Shown: positions 17,972 to 45,123 of the stretch, one piece after another | Layout: every line of letters begins with the position of its first letter | How positions within the stretch are numbered: the stretch's first letter is position 1 | NCBI GenBank assembly: GCA_964570655.1 | Contig: CAZMYU010000005.1 | Coordinates: 1-56,578, forward strand | DNA length: 56,578 bases | Source of the DNA: an uncultured Gammaproteobacteria bacterium | GTDB lineage: Bacteria; Patescibacteriota; Patescibacteriia; Patescibacteriales; UBA12465 | Direction of reading: 5' to 3' | Position numbers and translations under genes: made by a program | The notes under the pieces: model-generated | The model's database searches: none | The model's input: only the letters and a program-made list of their open reading frames with translations | Told to the model about the DNA's origin: nothing

Positions 17972-18448
17972 ATGAGTTGTTGCTCAGGCAAAACCAAAGC
18001 CCCCAAAAAGGCCAAAAAAGCCAAAAAAGGCTTTACTTTATTAGAAGTATTATTGGTAGTAGCGATTATCGCCATTTTGGCGGGAATTGTGATTCTAGCC
18101 TTAAATCCTTCTAAGCAATTAGCTGATTCACGCAATTCTCAACGTCGAGTTGATGTGAACACCATTTTAAATGCCGTGTATCAATATGCTGTGGATAATA
18201 ATGGCACTGTTCCAGCCACCATTTTGACTACCAGCACTGAAATTTGTAAGGCTAGCAGCACCTGCACTGGGTTAGTTGACCTATCAGTTTTAACCAATAG
18301 TGAAAAATTTTTGACTTCTATACCAACAGATCCAACCGGAGCTAGTACTAATGGTACTGGTTATAGGATTATGAAAACTGTTAACAATCGTGTCACGGTT
18401 ACAGCTCCTTCGGCTGAAAATGGAGCTTCCATTTCGGTTACTAGATAG
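17972..18448 (+). CDS. major type IV pilin candidate
   Basis: KG|FTLLEVLLVVAIIAILAGIV..LNP; preceded by its own AT-rich intergenic region and followed by a hairpin at 18462-18493. Confidence 0.88.
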   Translation: MSCCSGKTKAPKKAKKAKKGFTLLEVLLVVAIIAILAGIVILALNPSKQLADSRNSQRRVDVNTILNAVYQYAVDNNGTVPATILTTSTEICKASSTCTGLVDLSVLTNSEKFLTSIPTDPTGASTNGTGYRIMKTVNNRVTVTAPSAENGASISVTR

Positions 18449-35657: not shown

Positions 35658-36874
35658 ACAAAAAATTAATTATATTACTCACGGTTTTTATCGATGTTTT
35701 AGGTTTGGGAATTATTATTCCCATTATGCCTTTTTATGTTGCCCAATTTTCCACTTCGCCAATAATTATTACCGCTCTGTTTGCGGTGTTTGCGGCTTGC
35801 GCTTTTTTTAGCGCTCCATTTTTGGGCGCTTTATCTGACAAAATTGGTCGGCGCCCGGTTTTAATTATTAGTATTTTTTCTAGTGCTTTGGGTTGGCTAA
35901 TGTTTGCTTGGGCTCCTAGTTTAATTTTTTTATTTGTCGGCCGAATCATTGATGGCTTGGCGGCGGGTAATTTTTCCATCGCTCAAGGATATCTAAGTGA
36001 TATCTCCAAAACCCCCAAAGAACGCACAGCTAATATGGGACTGATTGGAGCGATCTTTGGAGTGGGGTTAATTATTGGCCCAGCCTTAGGTGGATTACTA
36101 AGTCTCGTGTCTTTAAGCTTCCCTTTTTGGATTGTCGCCGGATTAGCCTTTATAAATTTTGTTTCCGCTATTTTGTTTTTGCCAGAAACCAACCAGAATA
36201 AGCAAGTCGACAAAAAAATAGAGTTTAATCCTTTTCTACCGATTAGTCGATCATTTAGAAACAAAAATATTCAAGCCAATCTAATAGCTTGGGTACTTTT
36301 TGGTTTGGGTATTAGTTTACTCCAAGCGATTATGGCTCTCTACCTAGCCCGAGCCTTTGGTTTGTCAGCCCATTTCGCTTCTTATATTTTTACCTTTACC
36401 GGAGTTCTACTGGTTATTAATCAAGGATTTTTGTTGCAAAAATTTTGGCTGAAAAAGTTTAACGAAAGATATTTGCAATCAATGATGTTAATCGTTTTCA
36501 CTATTGGCTTCATGATTGTTAGTATCAAATATTTGTGGGTGTTTATTATCGGACTTATCCTGACTACTTTTGGTCAATCCCTCTTGCGAGCCGTAATGAC
36601 TTCGGAAATGCTCAAAAAAGTAGACGATCATCGACACGGTGAAATTCTCGGTGTTAATCATTCGCTGATGTCCCTCACACTCATTATTGGACCACTCCTG
36701 GCTGGCTGGCTATTTAACTGGCAGATGACTTCGCCTTTTTGGTTGGGAGCAATTTTGATGTTCGTAGCTTACTTAGCGCTTAAAATCAAAAAAGATAGAT
36801 ACCAAAAACAAAATCTAGATTTAGAAATAAACACTGAAGAGCTTTATGAAAAAAATATTCCAACTGCAATCTGA
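35654..36874 (+). CDS. MFS transporter (TetA/DHA1-like)
   Basis: Motif A GALSDKIGRRPVL; GRIIDGLAAGN; IIGPALGG; ~12 TM. Confidence 0.9.
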   Translation: MNKKLIILLTVFIDVLGLGIIIPIMPFYVAQFSTSPIIITALFAVFAACAFFSAPFLGALSDKIGRRPVLIISIFSSALGWLMFAWAPSLIFLFVGRIIDGLAAGNFSIAQGYLSDISKTPKERTANMGLIGAIFGVGLIIGPALGGLLSLVSLSFPFWIVAGLAFINFVSAILFLPETNQNKQVDKKIEFNPFLPISRSFRNKNIQANLIAWVLFGLGISLLQAIMALYLARAFGLSAHFASYIFTFTGVLLVINQGFLLQKFWLKKFNERYLQSMMLIVFTIGFMIVSIKYLWVFIIGLILTTFGQSLLRAVMTSEMLKKVDDHRHGEILGVNHSLMSLTLIIGPLLAGWLFNWQMTSPFWLGAILMFVAYLALKIKKDRYQKQNLDLEINTEELYEKNIPTAI

Positions 36875-38681
36875 ATATAAACCAGCCGGTGATCAACCTG
36901 AGGCTATCAAAAAATTGATAGCTGGGCTTCAGCGTGGCGATGATTTTCAAACTCTCTTAGGCGTGACTGGTTCAGGCAAAACTTTTACTATGGCTAATGT
37001 TTTGACGGAGTATAACAAGCCGGTTTTGGTAATGGCTCCGAACAAAGCTTTGGCTGCTCAACTGTATCGAGAATACAAAAACTTTTTTCCGGGTAACGCG
37101 GTGCATTATTTTGTGTCTTATTATGATTATTATCAGCCCGAAGCTTATTTGCCAATTACTGACACTTATATTGAAAAAGAGGCTATGATCAATCAAGAAA
37201 TCGATCGTTTACGTCATGCCGCTACCTCTTCGCTGGTTTCTAGACGGGATGTGATTGTGGTGGCCTCAGTTTCTTGTATTTATAATTTGGGTATCCCAGT
37301 TTCTTATACTGAAGCGGCTATTCATTTAGAAATCAATCAACCATTAACGCGCAGTGATTTGATTGCTCAATTAATCAAGATTCATTTTAAAAGAACCAGT
37401 GGCGAGATTAAACGCGGAGAATTTAGAGTGCGCGGTGATGTTTTTGAAATTAGACCGATGTCGGAAAATATTACTTATCGCCTAGAACTAAGCGGACAAA
37501 AAGTAGCGGAAATTAATGTTATTGATCATTTGTCCCGCCACTCCCTAGAAAATTTAAAAGAAATCGTCATCTTTCCACCCAAGCATTTTGTATCGACCCA
37601 ACCCCAAGTAGAGCAAGCTATTTCCCAAATTCAAAGTGAACTACAAGAACGCTTGGAATATTTTAAAAAAAACGAGATGTATTTGGAAGCCGAGCGACTG
37701 AGCCGGCGTACTCGTTATGACATTGAAATGCTGCACACTCTAGGGTATTGTCAGGGCATTGAAAATTATTCTCGTCATCTAACGGGAAAATTAGTCGGGG
37801 AAGCGCCTGATACTTTGCTAGGATATTTTCCTTGGAAAGACGGAAAACCGGATTTTTTGACTATTATGGATGAAAGTCATATTGGACTGCCGCAAATTGG
37901 AGGAATGTATGAAGGAGATAGGGCCCGCAAACAAAATCTAATAAAATATGGCTGGCGCTTGCCATCAGCCCTAGATAATCGACCACTCAAATTTACCGAA
38001 TTTTTGCAAAGAGTTGGGCAAGTGATTTTTACCAGTGCCACGCCCGGTATTTTTGAAACCCAAAAATCCAAACAAGTGGCTGAGCAGGTGATTCGTCCGA
38101 CCGGATTAGTAGACCCAGAGATTGAAATCAAACCAGTGTATGACAAAAAAGCCAATCGCAGTCAGATTGATGATATTGTGGAACAGATCAAGGTTTTGGC
38201 AGCCAAAAATGAACGGATAATTGTTAATACGCTCACCAAAAAACAAGCTGAAGATCTGCATGCTTATTTGGGCAAGCAAAAAATCAATTCCAATTATCTG
38301 CATTCGGACATCAAGACTTTTGAGCGCACCGATATTTTGAAACATTTTCGAGAAGGGAAGTTTGATGTCTTAATTGGAGTTAATTTACTGCGCGAAGGTT
38401 TGGATTTGCCAGAAGTCACTCTGGTAGCTATTTTGGATGCTGACCGGGAAGGATTCTTGCGTAGTCAAACTTCGCTAATGCAAACCATGGGGAGAGCGGC
38501 GCGCAATGTTTCGGGGCGAATTATTTTGTATGCCGATACTATTACTGGCTCCATGAAAAGAGCTATTGCCGAATCTCGTCGCCGACGCCTGAAACAATTA
38601 GCCTATAATAAAAAACACGGCATCACCCCACAGACAATTAAAAAGAAGATTGAAGAGTTGTTGGATATGGCTCAGGAATAG
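36846..38681 (+). CDS. uvrB: excinuclease ABC subunit B
   Basis: LLGVTGSGKT, FVSYYDYYQPEAY, DESH, LREGLDLPEV, QTMGRAARN. Confidence 0.97.
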   Translation: MKKIFQLQSEYKPAGDQPEAIKKLIAGLQRGDDFQTLLGVTGSGKTFTMANVLTEYNKPVLVMAPNKALAAQLYREYKNFFPGNAVHYFVSYYDYYQPEAYLPITDTYIEKEAMINQEIDRLRHAATSSLVSRRDVIVVASVSCIYNLGIPVSYTEAAIHLEINQPLTRSDLIAQLIKIHFKRTSGEIKRGEFRVRGDVFEIRPMSENITYRLELSGQKVAEINVIDHLSRHSLENLKEIVIFPPKHFVSTQPQVEQAISQIQSELQERLEYFKKNEMYLEAERLSRRTRYDIEMLHTLGYCQGIENYSRHLTGKLVGEAPDTLLGYFPWKDGKPDFLTIMDESHIGLPQIGGMYEGDRARKQNLIKYGWRLPSALDNRPLKFTEFLQRVGQVIFTSATPGIFETQKSKQVAEQVIRPTGLVDPEIEIKPVYDKKANRSQIDDIVEQIKVLAAKNERIIVNTLTKKQAEDLHAYLGKQKINSNYLHSDIKTFERTDILKHFREGKFDVLIGVNLLREGLDLPEVTLVAILDADREGFLRSQTSLMQTMGRAARNVSGRIILYADTITGSMKRAIAESRRRRLKQLAYNKKHGITPQTIKKKIEELLDMAQE

Positions 38682-38720
38682 TTGGAGTAAAAAATCTTAT
38701 AATAATATAACTATAATTTT

Positions 38721-39284
38721 ATGGACATTAGAAAAATAAAAACCAGAGTTTTTGACGAAGATTGTTCGTTAGAAATAATGGATTTTGTAAAAAGTGACGG
38801 AAAAAAATGGAAAACTATTTTCGATCTATGGAGAGGATTAAAAATGGGCATGCGGGATTATAAATCTCGAGAGCCAAATTTTCCCGAAGGACTTTCCGAG
38901 GTTGCATTTTGCCTTTGGTCAGGATCTTCTCGTTTTATCTCTGCTTATCGTCTATCAAATACTTCATTTGACACCTTTAACACAAAAACTAACAGGGCTG
39001 AACAGATTAAGGCCTGTAGCGTGGAAAACGATCTCACTTCTTTCGGGCCGAAATCAAAATGGGATGATTTATATTTTCTTGATTTTTATAATAGCGGAAA
39101 AGTTGATGGAAAATTTGATATTTATTGTATACCGAATAAATTAATTTATAAAAATAAAGTTAATAGAAGTCAAACACTTATAGATCAACAAGAACAAAAA
39201 CGTCGTCCTCGTTTTTCTATAAAAAAAGATATTATTGCAAAAAATAAACTTAAGCCGATTGCAACAAAAATAAAAGTTTGGTAA
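38721..39284 (+). CDS. type II restriction endonuclease, Bsp6I-like
   Basis: NFPEGLSE, QIKACS..DLTSFGP, DQQEQKRRPRFS resemble R.Bsp6I as recalled; convergent with a matching MTase. Confidence 0.75.
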   Translation: MDIRKIKTRVFDEDCSLEIMDFVKSDGKKWKTIFDLWRGLKMGMRDYKSREPNFPEGLSEVAFCLWSGSSRFISAYRLSNTSFDTFNTKTNRAEQIKACSVENDLTSFGPKSKWDDLYFLDFYNSGKVDGKFDIYCIPNKLIYKNKVNRSQTLIDQQEQKRRPRFSIKKDIIAKNKLKPIATKIKVW

Positions 39285-40862
39285 TTATTCCATTGCTTTC
39301 ATCATTTGTCTAGCCACAGCTTCAACCACTGGAACACTAACTGAATTTCCAAATTGCTTATAAAGAGCTGAATCAGCTAATTGCGGTAATTTATAATCAG
39401 CAGGGAATCCCTGGATACGAGCACATTCCAGTGGAGTCAATTTTCTAATACCTTTTTTATCTTTAATAATTGGCACATTATGTCCACCGGTTCCCATATT
39501 AGCAGTTAGCGTTGGGCAAACACCACTTTTATTTTCACGAACATAATGTCTTCGCCATTGATATACCTTACCTTCCTCTTTTATAAAGTTTTTCAATTTT
39601 TTATATAACGGCTTGCCATTATAATAATATTTTTCAGGAACATTCTTCTCTAACAAATCAGTAATCTTTTTAGTAAGCTTAACTGGGTTGGGAAATTCAA
39701 ATTTTTCGGCATAATCTTTATTTCTAAAACCAACGATATAAATACGCTCCCTATTTTGTGGAATATTTCCATATTCCATGCTGTTTAAAACTTTTGTTTT
39801 TACATGGTAACCAAGATTTTTTAATGTTTCTTCTATTACTTTAAATGTTTTTCCTTGGTCGTGACTTTTTAGATTTTTAACATTTTCCAATAAAAAACCT
39901 TCTGGTTTTCGGGCGTCAATTATTCGAGTGATATCAAAAAATAAATTCCCCCTGCCTTTCTCGTCGTCAAAGCCCTGTCTATGCCCGGCTATAGAAAAAG
40001 CTTGACAAGGGAATCCCCCTAAAAGGAAGTCGAATTCAGGTAAATCATCTATCCCGATTTTTCTTATATCTTCAACTATTAATTTGGAATCTTTAAAATT
40101 AAGATCATATGTTTCCTTGCATTGAGATTCAAAATCATTAGCAAAAACTGTTTTAAATCCAGCATTTTCAAATCCTAGTCGTATTCCACCAACACCGGCA
40201 AAAAGATCAATTGTTTTAAATCCGTGTTTAGTTTTTTTAGAGTTTTTTTTCTCTGGTTCATTGGCTATACTACTTATAACCTGAATAACAACACCACGCA
40301 CTTCGACCTCTTTCCGATAAAAGGGAAGCATAGACTGGTTTCTTGGTTCAAGTCGATATCTTGTTTTTTCTCGGTATAGCTTTTTAAGAGTTGCCTGATT
40401 ATCATCAATAATAGCCACGACTGTTTGTCCATTTTCTGCCACTGATTGTTTTTTGATTATAACAATATCTCCATCGAAAATTCCTTCGTCAATCATGCTA
40501 TCACCCGTAACACGCAAAGCGTAATATCCTTCGGCGGTTTTAATAGATGGATTAACTATAGAAATAGTGTCTTCAATATTTTCAATAACTTCTATTGGAT
40601 ATCCAGCAGCAATTTTTCCGACAATAGGAATTTCTACGATAGATTTTATTTCTTTTTTAATAGATAAACCCCTGGCAGAATTTTCTGATTTCGAAATATA
40701 TTCCTTAGCTTCAAGATTATCGATATGTTCATGAATAGTAGAAACCGCCTTAAGCTTTAATTTTTTCCGTATTTCTTCAATAGTTGGCGATATGCCATTT
40801 TCAGCAATATAGGAACTTATAAAATCAAATACCTGTTTTTGTTTTTTTGTAATATTTTGCAT
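39285..40862 (-). CDS. lexA: LexA repressor - C5 cytosine DNA methyltransferase fusion
   Basis: N-terminal wHTH, A86-G87 site, S122 and K160; then FAGVGG, GGFPCQ, ENVKN, QNRER, YKQFGNSV; target-recognition region YQWRRHYVRENKSGVCPTLTANMGTGGHNVP resembles M.Bsp6I (GCNGC). Confidence 0.92.
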   Translation of the reverse strand: MQNITKKQKQVFDFISSYIAENGISPTIEEIRKKLKLKAVSTIHEHIDNLEAKEYISKSENSARGLSIKKEIKSIVEIPIVGKIAAGYPIEVIENIEDTISIVNPSIKTAEGYYALRVTGDSMIDEGIFDGDIVIIKKQSVAENGQTVVAIIDDNQATLKKLYREKTRYRLEPRNQSMLPFYRKEVEVRGVVIQVISSIANEPEKKNSKKTKHGFKTIDLFAGVGGIRLGFENAGFKTVFANDFESQCKETYDLNFKDSKLIVEDIRKIGIDDLPEFDFLLGGFPCQAFSIAGHRQGFDDEKGRGNLFFDITRIIDARKPEGFLLENVKNLKSHDQGKTFKVIEETLKNLGYHVKTKVLNSMEYGNIPQNRERIYIVGFRNKDYAEKFEFPNPVKLTKKITDLLEKNVPEKYYYNGKPLYKKLKNFIKEEGKVYQWRRHYVRENKSGVCPTLTANMGTGGHNVPIIKDKKGIRKLTPLECARIQGFPADYKLPQLADSALYKQFGNSVSVPVVEAVARQMMKAME

Positions 40863-40895
40863 ATTGATATAAAAAATTATTTATGCTACAATTTA

Positions 40896-40924
40896 ATTAT
40901 AACCGAAAGAAAACCGAAAATCAA
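40896..40924 (-). promoter_or_regulatory. lexA-MTase promoter containing a direct repeat (candidate LexA box)
   Basis: TTGATT(40924-40919)-17bp-TATAAT(40901-40896); AACCGAAA at 40901 and 40912 fills the spacer. Confidence 0.7.
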
Positions 40925-40947
40925 GGCACTTATCCACAGCAATAAAT

Positions 40948-40975
40948 AAAAAAAGACCTTCGTTTTTAGAAGGTC
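40948..40975 (-). terminator. intrinsic terminator
   Basis: GACCTTC/GAAGGTC stem with a 7-nt T-tract on the minus strand. Confidence 0.7.
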
Positions 40976-41001: not shown

Positions 41002-41145
41002 TTACATCGGAGAGTAATTAGCCATTGGATTAAGATGGTACTGGTATATTGCTATTGCAACCAGTATAAGGGTTATACCAAGTAAAATGAAGCTAAGCTT
41101 CGCAGCAATACTGGGTTTCGGAATTCTTTTTAAAAATTTCAACAT
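41002..41145 (-). CDS. small single-TM protein (47 aa), not in ORF track
   Basis: Hand translation MLKFLKRIPKPSIAAKLSFILLGITLILVAIAIYQYHLNPMANYSPM. Confidence 0.55.
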   Translation of the reverse strand: MLKFLKRIPKPSIAAKLSFILLGITLILVAIAIYQYHLNPMANYSPM

Positions 41146-41174: not shown

Positions 41175-41276
41175 TTATGAAGGAATTCCGCCGCTCATAC
41201 AAGCGACGACAACGATAGTACTTATAACAGTGATAACAACGAAAACGAAAATGGTTCCTGAGTGTTTTTTGATCAT
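41175..41276 (-). CDS. small single-TM peptide (33 aa), not in ORF track
   Basis: Hand translation MIKKHSGTIFVFVVITVISTIVVVACMSGGIPS; follows a consensus promoter. Confidence 0.5.
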   Translation of the reverse strand: MIKKHSGTIFVFVVITVISTIVVVACMSGGIPS

Positions 41277-41396: not shown

Positions 41397-41425
41397 CTGG
41401 ATCCCCAGTCGAGCTGGGGATGACA
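41397..41425 (-). repeat. REP variant (29 nt)
   Basis: Reverse complement reads TGTCATCCCCAGCTCGACTGGGGATCCAG; ends identical to the 28-nt family. Confidence 0.85.
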
Positions 41426-41434
41426 GATAATCAT

Positions 41435-43936
41435 ATGGAAGAACAAATCATTATAAAAGGGGCGAAAATGCACAATCTCAAGAATATTGACCTGAGCATC
41501 CCCCACAACAAATTAACAGTTATTAGCGGTGTTTCTGGCTCGGGCAAGTCATCGCTGGCTTTTGATACCATTTTTGCTGAAGGTCAACGGCAATACGTGG
41601 AGTCTTTGTCGCCCTATATGCGCCAGTTTTTGGGACAAAAAAAACCAGCCGAAGTGGATCAAATCATTGGTCTAGCTCCGGCTATTTCCATTGACCAAAA
41701 AGCCCTATCTCATAATCCGCGCTCCACTGTTGGAACTTTAACCGAGATTCATGACTATCTACGGGTTTTATATGCCCGTTTGGGTGAAGTCTTTTGTCCG
41801 GTTTGCGGTCACAAAATTGAAAAATTAACTTTGGAAGAAATGGTCGATATTATTATTAATCGCGGCAAAGAATTCCAAAAGGAATATGTCACCATTTTTA
41901 GTCCAGTCGTTTCTGGCCGCAAAGGTGAATATTATCAATTGCTCTATGATTATTTATCTCTTGGTTATAGCCAGGCGCGCATTGATGGTGTACTGCATAA
42001 TTTACGTGAACCTATCAAATTATCGGCCACCAAAAAACATAATATTGAAATTTTGATCGACAAAGTGATGCTAAATGACGAAGGTCGAATGTTTGAAGCG
42101 GTGGAAAATTCTATTAATTATAGCAAGGGGCTAGCCATTGCTAATTATGAAAACCAAGAATTTTTATTATCTTCTAATTGGACTTGTCCGAATGATAATT
42201 TTTCTTTTCCCGAAGTAGAGCCGCGACTTTTTTCTTTTAATTCTCCGCATGGCGCTTGTCCGGATTGTTCCGGCCTAGGAAAAATCGGCTTTAGCACCGA
42301 AGACGCCTGCCCAAGTTGCCAAGGCCAAAGGCTCAAACCTGAAGCCCTGTCAGTCAAAATAAAAAATCAAAATATCGCTCAAGTTTCCAAAATGTCCGCT
42401 TCCAAGGCTCATGATTTCTTTTGGAATTATTTTTCCAAAATGACCAAACGCCAATTGGCGATTGCCGAAAATGTGATGACCCAAATTATTAATCGCCTAG
42501 ATTTTATGATTAGGGTGGGGCTAGACTATATTTCCTTGGACCGGGAAGCCGAAACCTTGTCAGGTGGTGAAGCCCAAAGAATTAGGTTGTCCTCACAAAT
42601 TGGTTCGCAATTATCGCGTACTCTCTATGTCTTGGATGAGCCAACTATTGGTCTGCACGAAAAAGATACCGATCGACTTATCCAAACTCTCAAAACTTTA
42701 AGAGACAAGCATAATACTGTCGTCATTGTTGAGCACGATGAACGCACTATTTTGGAATCTGATTATTTGGTAGATTTAGGGCCACTGGCCGGAGTACATG
42801 GCGGAGAAATTGTCGCCATTGGTGCCACCAAGGATTTACTCGGTCCTAAGAGTGAGCAATTTAAAGACTCATTAACTTTGAAATATTTAAAAAAGAAACG
42901 ACAAATCGAAGCTCCCCGAGAAAGACGCAGTCAAAATCACGGCGAACTTAAAATTATTGGTGGACGAGCTAATAATTTGAAAAACATTAATGTTAGCATT
43001 CCTCTGGGACGACTAGTGGGAATTACCGGAGTTTCAGGGAGCGGTAAATCTTCGCTACTTTATGATGTCGTTTATAAAAATATTACTAGGATCAAAAATC
43101 GACCAGGTGGCCGAGCCAAACTGGAAAACGTCACTGATATCAAAGGCACTGAATCAATTAATAAAATTATTGTTATCAATCAATCACCAATTGGTCGCAC
43201 TCCACGTTCTAATCCGGCTACCTACACGGGAATCTTTACGCCAATTCGAGATTTTTTTGCCGAGCTACCAGCGGCCAAAGAACGAGCCTATACTTTGTCG
43301 CGTTTTTCTTTTAATCGCCCAGGAGGACGTTGCGAAGCTTGTGCGGGAGCTGGTTTTAATCTAATTGAAATGCATTTTCTACCAGCCGTGCTAGTAGAAT
43401 GCGAAGTCTGTCGAGGCAAACGTTTTAATCGAGAAACTTTGCAGGTAAAATATAAAGGATTAAACATTTCCGAAATATTAAACTTAACTATTGATGAGGC
43501 CTATGATTTATTTTCTGAACACTATCAGATTGCCGATAAATTAAAAGTGTTAAAAGAGGTTGGATTAGGTTATTTACAACTTGGACAATCCGCGACCACC
43601 TTGTCGGGCGGAGAGGCCCAGAGAATTAAAATCGCCAAAGAACTCACTCATACCTTGGGTCAAAAAACCCTCTATCTACTAGACGAACCAACTACTGGGC
43701 TTCATTATGAAGACATCAAAATGCTTCTGCAGGTTTTAAACAAATTAGTCGACAAAGGAAACTCCGCTCTAATCATTGAACATAATTTGCATATGATCAA
43801 ATCTATGGATTATGTCCTAGATTTAGGCCCTGGTGGTGGAGATAATGGTGGAAAACTAATTGCCAAGGGCGAACCCGAAGATTTAGTAAGGGATGAAAAT
43901 AGTATTACCGGAAAATATTTGAAAGAATATTTATAA
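41435..43936 (+). CDS. uvrA: excinuclease ABC subunit A
   Basis: HNLKNID, GVSGSGKSS twice, LSGGEAQRI twice, Zn fingers; ATG 41435 (track start 41420 lies in the REP). Confidence 0.97.
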   Translation: MEEQIIIKGAKMHNLKNIDLSIPHNKLTVISGVSGSGKSSLAFDTIFAEGQRQYVESLSPYMRQFLGQKKPAEVDQIIGLAPAISIDQKALSHNPRSTVGTLTEIHDYLRVLYARLGEVFCPVCGHKIEKLTLEEMVDIIINRGKEFQKEYVTIFSPVVSGRKGEYYQLLYDYLSLGYSQARIDGVLHNLREPIKLSATKKHNIEILIDKVMLNDEGRMFEAVENSINYSKGLAIANYENQEFLLSSNWTCPNDNFSFPEVEPRLFSFNSPHGACPDCSGLGKIGFSTEDACPSCQGQRLKPEALSVKIKNQNIAQVSKMSASKAHDFFWNYFSKMTKRQLAIAENVMTQIINRLDFMIRVGLDYISLDREAETLSGGEAQRIRLSSQIGSQLSRTLYVLDEPTIGLHEKDTDRLIQTLKTLRDKHNTVVIVEHDERTILESDYLVDLGPLAGVHGGEIVAIGATKDLLGPKSEQFKDSLTLKYLKKKRQIEAPRERRSQNHGELKIIGGRANNLKNINVSIPLGRLVGITGVSGSGKSSLLYDVVYKNITRIKNRPGGRAKLENVTDIKGTESINKIIVINQSPIGRTPRSNPATYTGIFTPIRDFFAELPAAKERAYTLSRFSFNRPGGRCEACAGAGFNLIEMHFLPAVLVECEVCRGKRFNRETLQVKYKGLNISEILNLTIDEAYDLFSEHYQIADKLKVLKEVGLGYLQLGQSATTLSGGEAQRIKIAKELTHTLGQKTLYLLDEPTTGLHYEDIKMLLQVLNKLVDKGNSALIIEHNLHMIKSMDYVLDLGPGGGDNGGKLIAKGEPEDLVRDENSITGKYLKEYL

Positions 43937-43947
43937 CTTTTCGCTTT

Positions 43948-45123
43948 ATGCCCGACTTAAAAGACAAACTGAAAAAAATTCCTAGTTCACCCGGAGTTTA
44001 TTTTTGGCTGGGAAAAAACCAAAAAGTTTTGTATGTTGGACGAGCCACTAGTCTCAAAAATCGTCTTGGCCAATACTTTCAAAAAAATATTGACCCGCGC
44101 ATAGCCGAAATGGTAGCTCAAGCTCAAAATATTAAAGTTATAAAAACCGACTCAGTTTTAGAAGCTATTATTCTCGAGGCCCAAAATATCAAAAAATATT
44201 GGCCTAAATATAATATTAAGGATCGTGATGACCGATCTTTTATTTATATTATTATTCCCAAAAAAACTTTTACCTGTCCAATAATTGTGCGGGGGAGGGA
44301 ATTGGAAAAAACCAAAGCCAAGTTTAAACAAGCCAAAATTTTTGGACCCTACCAATCACAAGCCTTAGCTTATAATGCTCTCAAAATAATCCGTCGAATT
44401 TTTCCTTATAGCACCTGTGAGACAAATAGTGGTCGGGCTTGCTTTGATTACCAGATCGGTTTATGCCCTGGAGCTTGCCTGGGGATAATTAACGCCAAAG
44501 AATATCAAAAAAATATTGCTAGCATTGTTTTGCTCCTCTCTGGTAAACGCCAAGCCTTAATTAAAAAATTAATCAAAGCCAATCCAGGCCAAGCTCAAGC
44601 TCTCAAACATCTGCAGGATGTTTCGCTATTAACTGGCGAAAAAAATCTAAACGACAAAATCAAACGTATCGAAGCTTATGATATTTCCCATTTAAGCGGA
44701 CAGGAGCCCTACGCTTCGATGGTAGTTTTCAGTGGTGAAGAAGCTAGCAAAAATGATTACCGCTTGTTTAAAATTAAAGAAGCCAAAGGAGGAGACGATG
44801 AAAGAGCCCTCACAGAGGTGCTTGGTCGTCGTTTCAAACATCAGGAATGGCCACGCCCAGATATTATTATGGTCGATGGCGGAGCTCCTCAAGTAAATTT
44901 TGTGGCTAATTTTTTAAGCTCTCAAGATATAAAAATTCCTTTGGTCGGAATTTCCAAATACGGTGGTGATAAATTGGTTTTTAGTAAAAACTTAAACAGT
45001 TCCCAGAAAAAAACAATCAGTATTTTAAAAGCAAGCTTGCTTCAAATTAGAGAGGAAGCTCATCGATTTGCTATTTCGGCTGGCCGGCGGGCCAGAAGAC
45101 GAAAAACTATTCACGGTTTTTAA
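43948..45123 (+). CDS. uvrC: excinuclease ABC subunit C (short form)
   Basis: PGVYFW..LYVGRATSLKNRL (GIY-YIG), YQIGLCPGAC, RIEAYDISH, PDIIMVDGG, LQIREEAHRFA. Confidence 0.9.
   Translation: MPDLKDKLKKIPSSPGVYFWLGKNQKVLYVGRATSLKNRLGQYFQKNIDPRIAEMVAQAQNIKVIKTDSVLEAIILEAQNIKKYWPKYNIKDRDDRSFIYIIIPKKTFTCPIIVRGRELEKTKAKFKQAKIFGPYQSQALAYNALKIIRRIFPYSTCETNSGRACFDYQIGLCPGACLGIINAKEYQKNIASIVLLLSGKRQALIKKLIKANPGQAQALKHLQDVSLLTGEKNLNDKIKRIEAYDISHLSGQEPYASMVVFSGEEASKNDYRLFKIKEAKGGDDERALTEVLGRRFKHQEWPRPDIIMVDGGAPQVNFVANFLSSQDIKIPLVGISKYGGDKLVFSKNLNSSQKKTISILKASLLQIREEAHRFAISAGRRARRRKTIHGF

Follow-up and report, generated by a model that had tools for sequence, protein, structure and literature searches.

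The balance between self-protection and defence in Type II restriction-modification (R-M) systems is known to be kept by C-proteins, by autoregulatory methylases with a short helix-turn-helix (HTH) region, by antisense RNAs, and by methylation-sensitive promoters. Here we describe a locus in which the methylase carries a complete LexA repressor. The locus lies in a 56,578-nt stretch of DNA (the window), which comprises positions 1 to 56,578 of the forward strand of contig CAZMYU010000005.1 from an uncultured Patescibacteriota host. It consists of a gene for a fusion of LexA with a C5 DNA methyltransferase (MTase) and a convergent gene for a Bsp6I-family endonuclease. The two genes probably form a horizontally mobile Type II R-M cassette of Patescibacteria, whose LexA-fused 5-methylcytosine MTase represses its own promoter, is derepressed upon DNA damage, and counters self-restriction. 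Neither a LexA-methyltransferase fusion nor a LexA-controlled R-M system was found described in a search of the full-text literature.

The closest described systems are the EcoRII, SsoII, Ecl18kI, and ScrFI methylases, whose N-terminal HTH regions autorepress their own genes (PMC3874152). As in this class, the window fusion has an N-terminal DNA-binding module on a C5 methylase and a candidate operator that overlaps the promoter of the methylase gene, and the "antitoxin" of the system is predicted to be autorepressed. However, the module in the window is not a short HTH but a complete LexA with a winged HTH (wHTH), an S24 domain, the Ala-Gly bond, and the catalytic Ser and Lys, which could admit an input from RecA or DNA damage. 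The gene arrangement also differs. The R and M genes of Ecl18kI and SsoII are divergent and share an intergenic region, whereas the window genes are convergent and lie tail to tail. The resemblance to the SsoII/EcoRII class is functional only.

LexA dimers repress transcription by operator occupancy. RecA filaments stimulate the Ser/Lys-mediated cleavage of an Ala-Gly bond in LexA, so that its DNA-binding and dimerisation domains come apart. Some known LexA operators are direct repeats with an 11-bp period, of the form GTTC-N7-GTTC (PMC8565304), and LexA of Patescibacteria has been cited among the direct-repeat binders (PMC7739468). The LexA half of the window protein resembles canonical LexA, as found in E. 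coli, T. maritima, and the direct-repeat binders of Alphaproteobacteria, in its full-length homology, its cleavage site and catalytic dyad, its apparently autoregulated promoter, and the 11-bp period of its candidate operator. It differs in being fused to an enzyme, in lacking a detectable SOS regulon, and in residing on a mobile R-M cassette. Moreover, several paralogous fusion copies with different operators may occur in one genome.

The fusion gene (39285..40862, minus strand) encodes a protein of 525 amino acids. Three Pfam domains are found above their gathering thresholds: LexA_DNA_bind (PF01726, 57 bits), Peptidase_S24 (100 bits), and DNA_methylase (PF00145, 323 bits). In NCBIfam, the N-terminal half scores 182.8 bits against the lexA model TIGR00498 (cutoff 111), covering positions 1-201 of its 203, and the C-terminal half scores 349.5 bits against the dcm model TIGR00675. 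LexA of T. maritima and E. coli, for which structures have been solved, can be aligned end to end with the first 200 residues, starting at residue 1. The last 316 residues align over their full length with M.HhaI (211 bits). PADLOC types the cassette genes as MTase_II and REase_II.

All parts of the fusion lie on the minus strand. The LexA wHTH domain covers residues 1-65 (40668..40862) and contains the recognition helix ...AVSTIHEHI.... The S24 autoprotease and dimerisation domain, delimited by Pfam and by the alignment with E. coli LexA, covers residues 79-193 (40284..40628). A linker of variable sequence (residues 196-215; 40218..40277) leads to the C5 cytosine MTase domain (residues 215-521; 39300..40220), in which the PCQ motif lies at 40002-40010 and the recognition domain, placed between motifs VIII and IX, at about residues 379-472. 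The predicted cleavage bond Ala86-Gly87 (40602-40607), Ser122 (40497-40499), and Lys160 (40383-40385) fall on Ala84-Gly85, Ser119, and Lys156 of E. coli LexA in the alignment. An earlier note on this DNA had read the open reading frame (ORF) as a complete LexA joined to a complete C5 MTase, and its residues and coordinates prove to be correct. The sole GCNGC site within the fusion ORF (GCAGC, 40606-40610) overlaps the codons of the Ala-Ala-Gly cleavage site, probably by coincidence.

The fusion is widespread. In a search of 5.8 billion proteins, the best 120 matches were 120 distinct clusters at 90% identity. Each of these proteins, of about 525 amino acids, has the three Pfam domains. They stem from numerous projects and assemblers, and those that are named bear the names of Patescibacteria lineages. 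When clustered at 50% identity, the family reduces to one representative and fragments. A scan of one genome per species revealed at least 546 related loci, of which the best 80 (62-89% identity) were studied. In these loci, the LexA and methylase halves are contiguous, and they form a complete single ORF wherever the contig allows.

Conservation was assessed in an alignment of 77 full-length LexA-MTase proteins. Ala86, Ser122, and Lys160 are invariant in all 77, and Gly87 in 76, among relatives down to 62% identity. The MTase motifs I (FxGxGG), IV (PCQ), VI (ENV), and X (GN) are likewise invariant in 77 of 77. Within the LexA half, conservation is highest at residues 121-160, which are also among the best-conserved of the whole protein. 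The linker is the least conserved segment, with a mean column identity of 0.55, a length of 11-22 amino acids, and no internal Met. The fusion is old, cohesive, and selected in both halves, as judged from its recurrence, its single cluster at 50% identity, and the combination of conserved residues with a variable linker. These comparisons establish the fusion as real and old, with every catalytic residue of both halves under strong purifying selection. As encoded, the methylase can be made only as a LexA fusion, and its predicted cleavage chemistry is intact. The earlier claim of a Type II R-M pair, in which the MTase is truly fused to an apparently cleavage-competent LexA, is borne out at the sequence level by the same residues.

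The S24 domains form the dimer interface of LexA, and it is conceivable that S24 has been kept in the fusion for dimerisation alone. The LexA half would then be a constitutive autorepressor and dimerisation module that is blind to RecA, comparable to the N-terminal HTH of M.SsoII. The N-terminal autorepression known in methylases indeed needs no signal input (PMC3874152). However, the invariance of the cleavage and catalytic residues, and the conservation of the core at residues 121-160 above the rest of the LexA half, would be unexpected if dimerisation alone mattered. For this reason, a RecA-blind LexA half is considered unlikely.

Control of the fusion by its own LexA half is suggested by the upstream region. 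The fusion promoter (40896..40924, minus strand) is of the sigma-70 type, scores 10/12 in a consensus scan, and lies downstream of the terminator of an unrelated upstream unit. It has a -35 box TTGATT (40919-40924), a 17-nt spacer, and a -10 box TATAAT (40896-40901). The candidate LexA operator TTTCGGTTTTCTTTCGGTT (40901..40919, minus strand), a TTCGG-N6-TTCGG direct repeat with an 11-bp period, fills the spacer. An alignment of the 120 nt upstream of the fusions showed that this promoter architecture is strongly conserved in most related loci. The direct repeat TTTCGG-N6-TTCGGT, with the same period, is present in the -35/-10 spacer of 67 of 77 loci. The 5' untranslated region contains a further conserved element, AATTGTAGCRYAAAT (about 40870-40895 in the window, minus strand), which directly follows the -10 box and is present in most related loci; it may indicate where transcription starts or serve as another binding site.

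The operator is almost exclusively found at fusion promoters. The window contains the exact core pattern a single time, at 40903-40918, and a 19-nt operator weight matrix (22 bits) gives only that site in the 56.6 kb, with 28.9 bits. With both the exact pattern and the matrix, the operator was absent before uvrA, uvrB, and uvrC and elsewhere in the window. The related loci were scanned with flanks of up to 8 kb, 979 kb in total. Here, 63 of the 73 matrix matches were at fusion promoters, and four more were inverted within the same intergenic region. The single strong outlier (L082; L-numbers denote related loci) lies inside the coding sequence of pyrG and was dismissed as a chance match. By the SOS-regulon criterion proposed in PMC8565304, no operator sites were found beyond the fusion promoters in the 56.6 kb, and nearly the same holds for the 979 kb.

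The half-site of the operator also co-varies with the recognition helix of the wHTH. Fusions with AVSTIHEHI have TTCGG, and those with SVSTAHHH or STAHYH have TTTCTA or TTTCGA; a second fusion family with another type of methylase, described below, is included in this pattern. The restriction of the operator to the fusion's own promoter and its co-variation with the helix therefore point to a private autoregulatory operator rather than an SOS regulon. Repression of its own promoter by the LexA half, that is, a LexA-type autorepression of the MTase, is well supported by this pattern. As far as could be tested, no LexA regulon is detectable beyond this promoter. That DNA damage would derepress the MTase may reasonably be inferred.

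A second element is found just upstream of the -35 box. This DnaA-box-like 9-mer, TGTGGATAA (40930..40938, minus strand), has the reverse complement TTATCCACA, which is the consensus DnaA box. The 9-mer is perfect in 50 of 76 promoters, an enrichment of about 190-fold over its background of 0.029 per kb, and 49 of the 77 perfect DnaA boxes in the 979 kb are located at fusion promoters. Both orientations and various distances are seen in distant loci, which fits an independent protein-binding site. The element suggests that control of the methylase is coupled to replication. One further perfect TGTGGATAA, the sole other copy in the window, lies at 18190-18198 (plus strand), within the ORF 17972-18448.

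The partner of the fusion is a gene for a Type II restriction endonuclease of the Bsp6I family (38721..39284, plus strand; 187 amino acids). Residues 10-174 of the protein match positions 10-171 of the 179 positions of the RE_Bsp6I profile (PF09504) with 46.8 bits, against a cutoff of 25, and PADLOC assigns it to REase_II with 90 bits. The nuclease has 822 homologs, with the NCBI name "Bsp6I family type II restriction endonuclease". The AlphaFold2 model of the nuclease has a predicted local distance difference test (pLDDT) score of 92.8. Foldseek gave weak fold neighbours of the PD-(D/E)XK type, with DpnI first (E 0.026) and PA-N endonucleases next, none of them below 1e-3. The nuclease and fusion genes converge, with zero gap between their stop codons, as the earlier note had described.

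The abutting arrangement is a general feature of the family, and the identity of the nuclease is not. Among 82 loci surveyed for partner nucleases, 78 have an ORF that abuts the stop codon of the fusion, mostly with a gap of -23 to +13 nt (37 and 69 nt in two loci), and the partner is convergent in all but two of the 78. Three of the four loci that have no abutting partner are contig ends. The partners sort into seven mutually unrelated families. Bsp6I-like nucleases are found in 27 loci including the window; they are 186-190 amino acids long and share many invariant residues. Two other families are NgoFVII-like (RE_NgoFVII_C; PADLOC REase_II with 346 bits) and PDDEXK_5. The remaining four have no Pfam match, and three of them (A1, A3, and A4) contain invariant motifs of the PD...(D/E)xK type. 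These four families were also compared by profile with PDB sequences, NCBIfam, and PADLOC, which gave nothing but a weak REase_II match for c6.

Each of the seven nuclease families is found beside fusions that are at least 85% identical to that of the window. The identity of the MTase recognition domain is 0.777 within partner classes vs 0.772 between them. Since this domain is equally conserved within and between the classes, one methylase specificity appears to serve all partners. A module made up of the LexA-MTase and its promoter, with a constant recognition domain, is thus seen in combination with at least seven unrelated nuclease genes in the loci compared.

The common specificity is probably GCNGC. 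Among the 16 N-centred palindromes counted across the fusion-bearing loci (about 1 Mb), GCNGC shows the strongest depletion, with an observed/expected ratio (O/E) of 0.60. It is depleted in each partner class (O/E 0.44-0.79), and the O/E of the control palindrome CGNCG is about 1.0 in all of the seven classes but one, where it is 0.82. NgoFVII, the namesake of one partner family, recognises GCSGC. The relatives of the methylase include two single-chain RE_Bsp6I-MTase fusions from the same MTase clade, whose methylase is 45-47% identical to that of the window. In the alignment with M.HhaI, the fusion MTase has a 5-residue deletion in Loop 2, and such a deletion is reported to distinguish the loop of M.Bsp6I (PMC2790894). 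For the nearest stand-alone methylases, the source names were uninformative, and no specificity could be read from them. The GCNGC specificity proposed in the earlier note thus receives indirect support from the nuclease family, the Loop 2 deletion, the palindrome depletion, and the relatives.

The representative proteins P0219, P0229, and P0217 comprise the two RE_Bsp6I-C5 MTase fusions and, in addition, a 777-amino acid fusion of LexA, S24, and C5 MTase with an Eco57I-like methylase fragment. CCNGG (O/E 0.70) and GGNCC (0.72) are also depleted across the same loci. Other R-M specificities common to these genomes would fit this, for example that of the MvaI/BcnI-type system in L069. Compared with the Bsp6I (GCNGC), Fnu4HI, and NgoFVII systems, the window system has the Bsp6I Pfam nuclease, an HhaI/Bsp6I-like methylase with a shortened Loop 2, depleted GCNGC sites, and an NgoFVII-like nuclease among its alternative partners. 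It differs from these GCNGC and GCSGC systems in that the methylase carries LexA, one methylase type is combined with seven nuclease families, and the specificity is a predicted one.

These features can be combined into a model of a damage-sensing R-M system. The dimeric fusion would bind its own operator and repress its own transcription. On entry into a naive cell, this would lead to a burst of methylase followed by a low steady level, as in autoregulating methylases of the SsoII/EcoRII type. RecA filaments formed on single-stranded DNA would stimulate cleavage at Ala86-Gly87 by Ser122 and Lys160. The trigger could be general DNA damage, or breaks made by the system's own nuclease at under-methylated GCNGC sites. 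Cleavage would free the wHTH from the S24-MTase body, the promoter would be derepressed, and the methylase output would rise until the damage signal ends. The DnaA-box-like element may in addition tie expression to replication initiation. The outcome would be a damage-sensing feedback that guards newly synthesised or recombined DNA, a "restriction alleviation" for Type II systems. In its proposed purpose, the avoidance of self-restriction at unmodified sites, this resembles the alleviation of Type I restriction, in which ClpXP degrades HsdR after DNA damage. The proposed means differ, since transcriptional derepression through LexA-type self-cleavage would act here on a Type II system, and this likeness is entirely inferred. 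Damage sensing is the leading hypothesis for the LexA half, and a plausible one.

Several observations weigh against this model. No recA gene is present in the 56.6-kb window. If the S24-MTase fragment were degraded after cleavage, the outcome would be the opposite of that proposed. The AlphaFold2 model of the whole fusion has a mean pLDDT of 60.6, with the S24 region below 50, and the arrangement of the domains cannot be read from it. In the window alone, the depletion of GCNGC is modest (O/E 0.81, third of the 16 palindromes), and 104 sites remain. Finally, the window nuclease gene has no clear promoter of its own and no C gene, and no terminator separates it from uvrB. Read-through transcription from uvrB is therefore possible, and one may speculate that the nuclease is weakly expressed or depends on such read-through.

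The fate of the cleavage fragments is central to another explanation, in which the fusion is a suicide switch. ClpXP and Lon of E. coli degrade both fragments that arise from LexA cleavage. If RecA-stimulated cleavage similarly destabilised the S24-MTase, methylation would lapse and the nuclease would cut the host chromosome, in the manner of abortive infection or post-segregational killing. The new C-terminus ...Ile-Ala-Ala left by cleavage resembles the Val-Ala-Ala degron of E. coli, and R-M systems are known addiction modules (PMC3874152). The degron-like end, however, would be on the small wHTH fragment and not on the MTase fragment. Cleavage would also derepress the promoter and replenish the fusion, and since methylation persists for one generation, killing would be slow. 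A suicide switch is quite unlikely on these grounds.

The third explanation concerns the position of the cassette in the genome. In the window, uvrB (36846-38681) lies to the left of the cassette, and uvrA (41420-43936) and uvrC (43948-45123) lie to the right. The location between these genes given by the earlier note is confirmed by the ORF coordinates and Pfam. The fusion could then be regarded as the master SOS repressor of the uvr and other repair genes, with the methylase as a passenger and the placement between uvrB and uvrA as an SOS operon structure. Besides its place among the three uvr genes, the fusion passes the NCBIfam lexA equivalog threshold, and no second lexA is found elsewhere in the window. 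The public annotation of the fusion proteins, which reads "transcriptional repressor LexA", "SOS regulatory protein LexA", or cytosine methyltransferase, partly agrees with such a role.

The boundaries of the cassette speak for a mobile unit. In blastn comparisons, the whole cassette, with the nuclease, the LexA-MTase, and the promoter region (38713..40950), has about 80% nucleotide identity with L003, L014, and L015, which are loci with the same nuclease. The similarity starts 31 nt past the stop codon of uvrB and ends about 88 nt upstream of the ATG of the fusion. Loci with other nucleases are similar over 39282-40940 only, and the similarity breaks exactly at the stop codon of the fusion. 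The GC content is 0.32 in the cassette vs about 0.39 in its flanks. A search for flanking repeats or integration scars around the cassette yielded nothing convincing. A fusion copy with 85% identity adjoins ftsA, ftsZ, and a gene for a pyridine-nucleotide-disulphide oxidoreductase (Pyr_redox family). No homolog of uvrA, uvrB, or uvrC was found near the fusion, within flanks of up to 8 kb, at any of the 80 other loci. As judged by homology, the cassette is a discrete, horizontally moving 2.2-kb unit with sharp boundaries, and its uvr neighbourhood is incidental.

A functional uvr linkage was rejected, given that uvr homologs are missing from the 80 other loci and the operator is missing from the uvr genes. 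The sharp transfer boundaries agree with this, so that the location "inside the uvr cluster", to which the earlier note had given meaning, has no functional one. Of the association between fusion, endonuclease, and uvr genes that it had envisaged, the first two elements recur together, with the fusion in 80 genomes and an abutting partner in 78 of 82 loci, and the uvr genes do not. One genome contains two LexA-MTase fusions with different operators, and another contains a separate lexA at the head of a different R-M operon. Because of the operator distribution, in which the one site of the window and nearly all sites of the 979 kb belong to fusion promoters, and because of the mobility of the cassette, a global SOS regulator is very unlikely. 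The homopolymer runs (A8 and A7) in the junction codons of the linker raise a last explanation, that the fusion is an artefact of assembly or a frameshift. This is practically impossible, as the earlier note's reading of a genuine fusion requires, since the best 120 clusters and 80 genomes, which stem from numerous studies and assemblers, show the same intact architecture, with differing linkers and no internal start codon for a separate methylase.

Other features of the uvr neighbourhood were noted. The Uvr proteins are short: UvrB has 611, UvrA 838, and UvrC 391 amino acids, the last with GIY-YIG and an RNase H-like domain and no further Pfam match. The uvrB gene overlaps the upstream gene for a major facilitator superfamily (MFS) transporter by 29 nt. 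Between the cassette and uvrA are two small hydrophobic ORFs, 41002-41145 and 41175-41276 (both on the minus strand), of 47 and 33 amino acids. Their unit has a near-consensus promoter (41348-41320) and a terminator-like hairpin (40975-40955). These ORFs were rejected as parts of the cassette, as they lie outside the homology block and are not conserved in any related locus.

Dedicated transcription factors that time R against M are found in C-protein systems such as PvuII, AhdI, and Esp1396I. Relatives of the window cassette also include such genes. In 16 of 77 loci, the gene directly upstream of that for the nuclease encodes a C-protein-like XRE-type HTH protein (HTH_3; 66-81 amino acids). 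A different small ORF occupies this position in five loci, and 52 loci, including the window, have none. In three of the five (L053, L057, and L060), the ORFs, of 60-62 amino acids and upstream of c2/c4 nucleases, are AbrB/SpoVT-like by motif only, and they may represent an alternative controller. In the window, only 39 bp separate the stop codon of uvrB from the ATG of the nuclease, and no C gene is present. Since the LexA-MTase and a C gene coexist in 16 of 77 loci, LexA is not a simple replacement for C. The earlier view that LexA replaces a C-protein controller was therefore too simple. The window copy, like most, has no C gene. The gene arrangement suggests that LexA governs M and C governs R, with C being optional. 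The window system thus differs from C-protein systems in having no C gene and in a LexA module that would control M rather than R and that is covalently part of M.

The combination of LexA with a methylase is seen in further designs. L069 has a second kind of fusion (L069:1609-4396), in which LexA and S24 are joined to an N4/N6-type methylase in a protein of 621 amino acids. Its gene is convergent with that of an MvaI/BcnI-family nuclease, with a 4-nt overlap, and is accompanied by a 73-amino acid C-protein; its promoter contains a TTTCTA-N5-TTTCTA repeat. The LexA-N4/N6 MTase family fills the best 120 clusters of its own homology search. In L038 (2337-5368, minus strand), an unfused lexA (192 amino acids; TIGR00498, 134.8 bits) heads an operon with an N6/N4 methylase (524 amino acids) and an RE_TdeIII nuclease (278 amino acids). 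This operon is located 2.6 kb from the LexA-C5-MTase cassette of the same genome. Within the genomes compared, the LexA-methylase theme is thus seen to recur as a C5 fusion, as an N4/N6 fusion, and as an unfused lexA-M-R operon. Related methylases also occur on viral contigs from IMG/VR (L083-L091), where C5 methylases with 52-56% identity to the methylase half are found without LexA; two short viral contigs end within LexA-module fusions. Because the viral relatives mostly lack LexA, a phage origin of the fusion is not supported.

A broader proposal, which we hold to be possible and put forward tentatively, is that self-cleaving LexA-type repressors have repeatedly been recruited in Patescibacteria as built-in damage sensors of Type II R-M systems. 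Methylation would rise in response to double-strand breaks from the system's own nuclease or to other damage that activates RecA. The fusion would then be a homeostat of self-restriction and a universal GCNGC protection module with exchanged, unrelated nucleases, coupled to replication initiation through the DnaA box. The finding is in any case broader than a uvr-linked case. It concerns a modular family that is widespread, has a defined operator and a DnaA-box-like element, can swap its nucleases, and represents a form of regulated Type II R-M. With one methylase module for seven unrelated families of nucleases, it offers a clear example from nature of modular exchange in R-M evolution. For Patescibacteria, the annotation of these fusions as LexA or SOS regulators would mislead reconstructions of SOS regulons. 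If true, a complete LexA on a methylase would give RecA filaments a direct damage input into the protection arm of an R-M system, a Type II restriction alleviation and possibly an anti-autoimmunity feedback. Fusions of this kind are abundant in the Candidate Phyla Radiation and strongly conserved there, in a group that is difficult to cultivate and about whose regulation almost nothing is known. They therefore offer a compact and easily cloned system for finding out whether RecA-LexA signalling operates in these bacteria.

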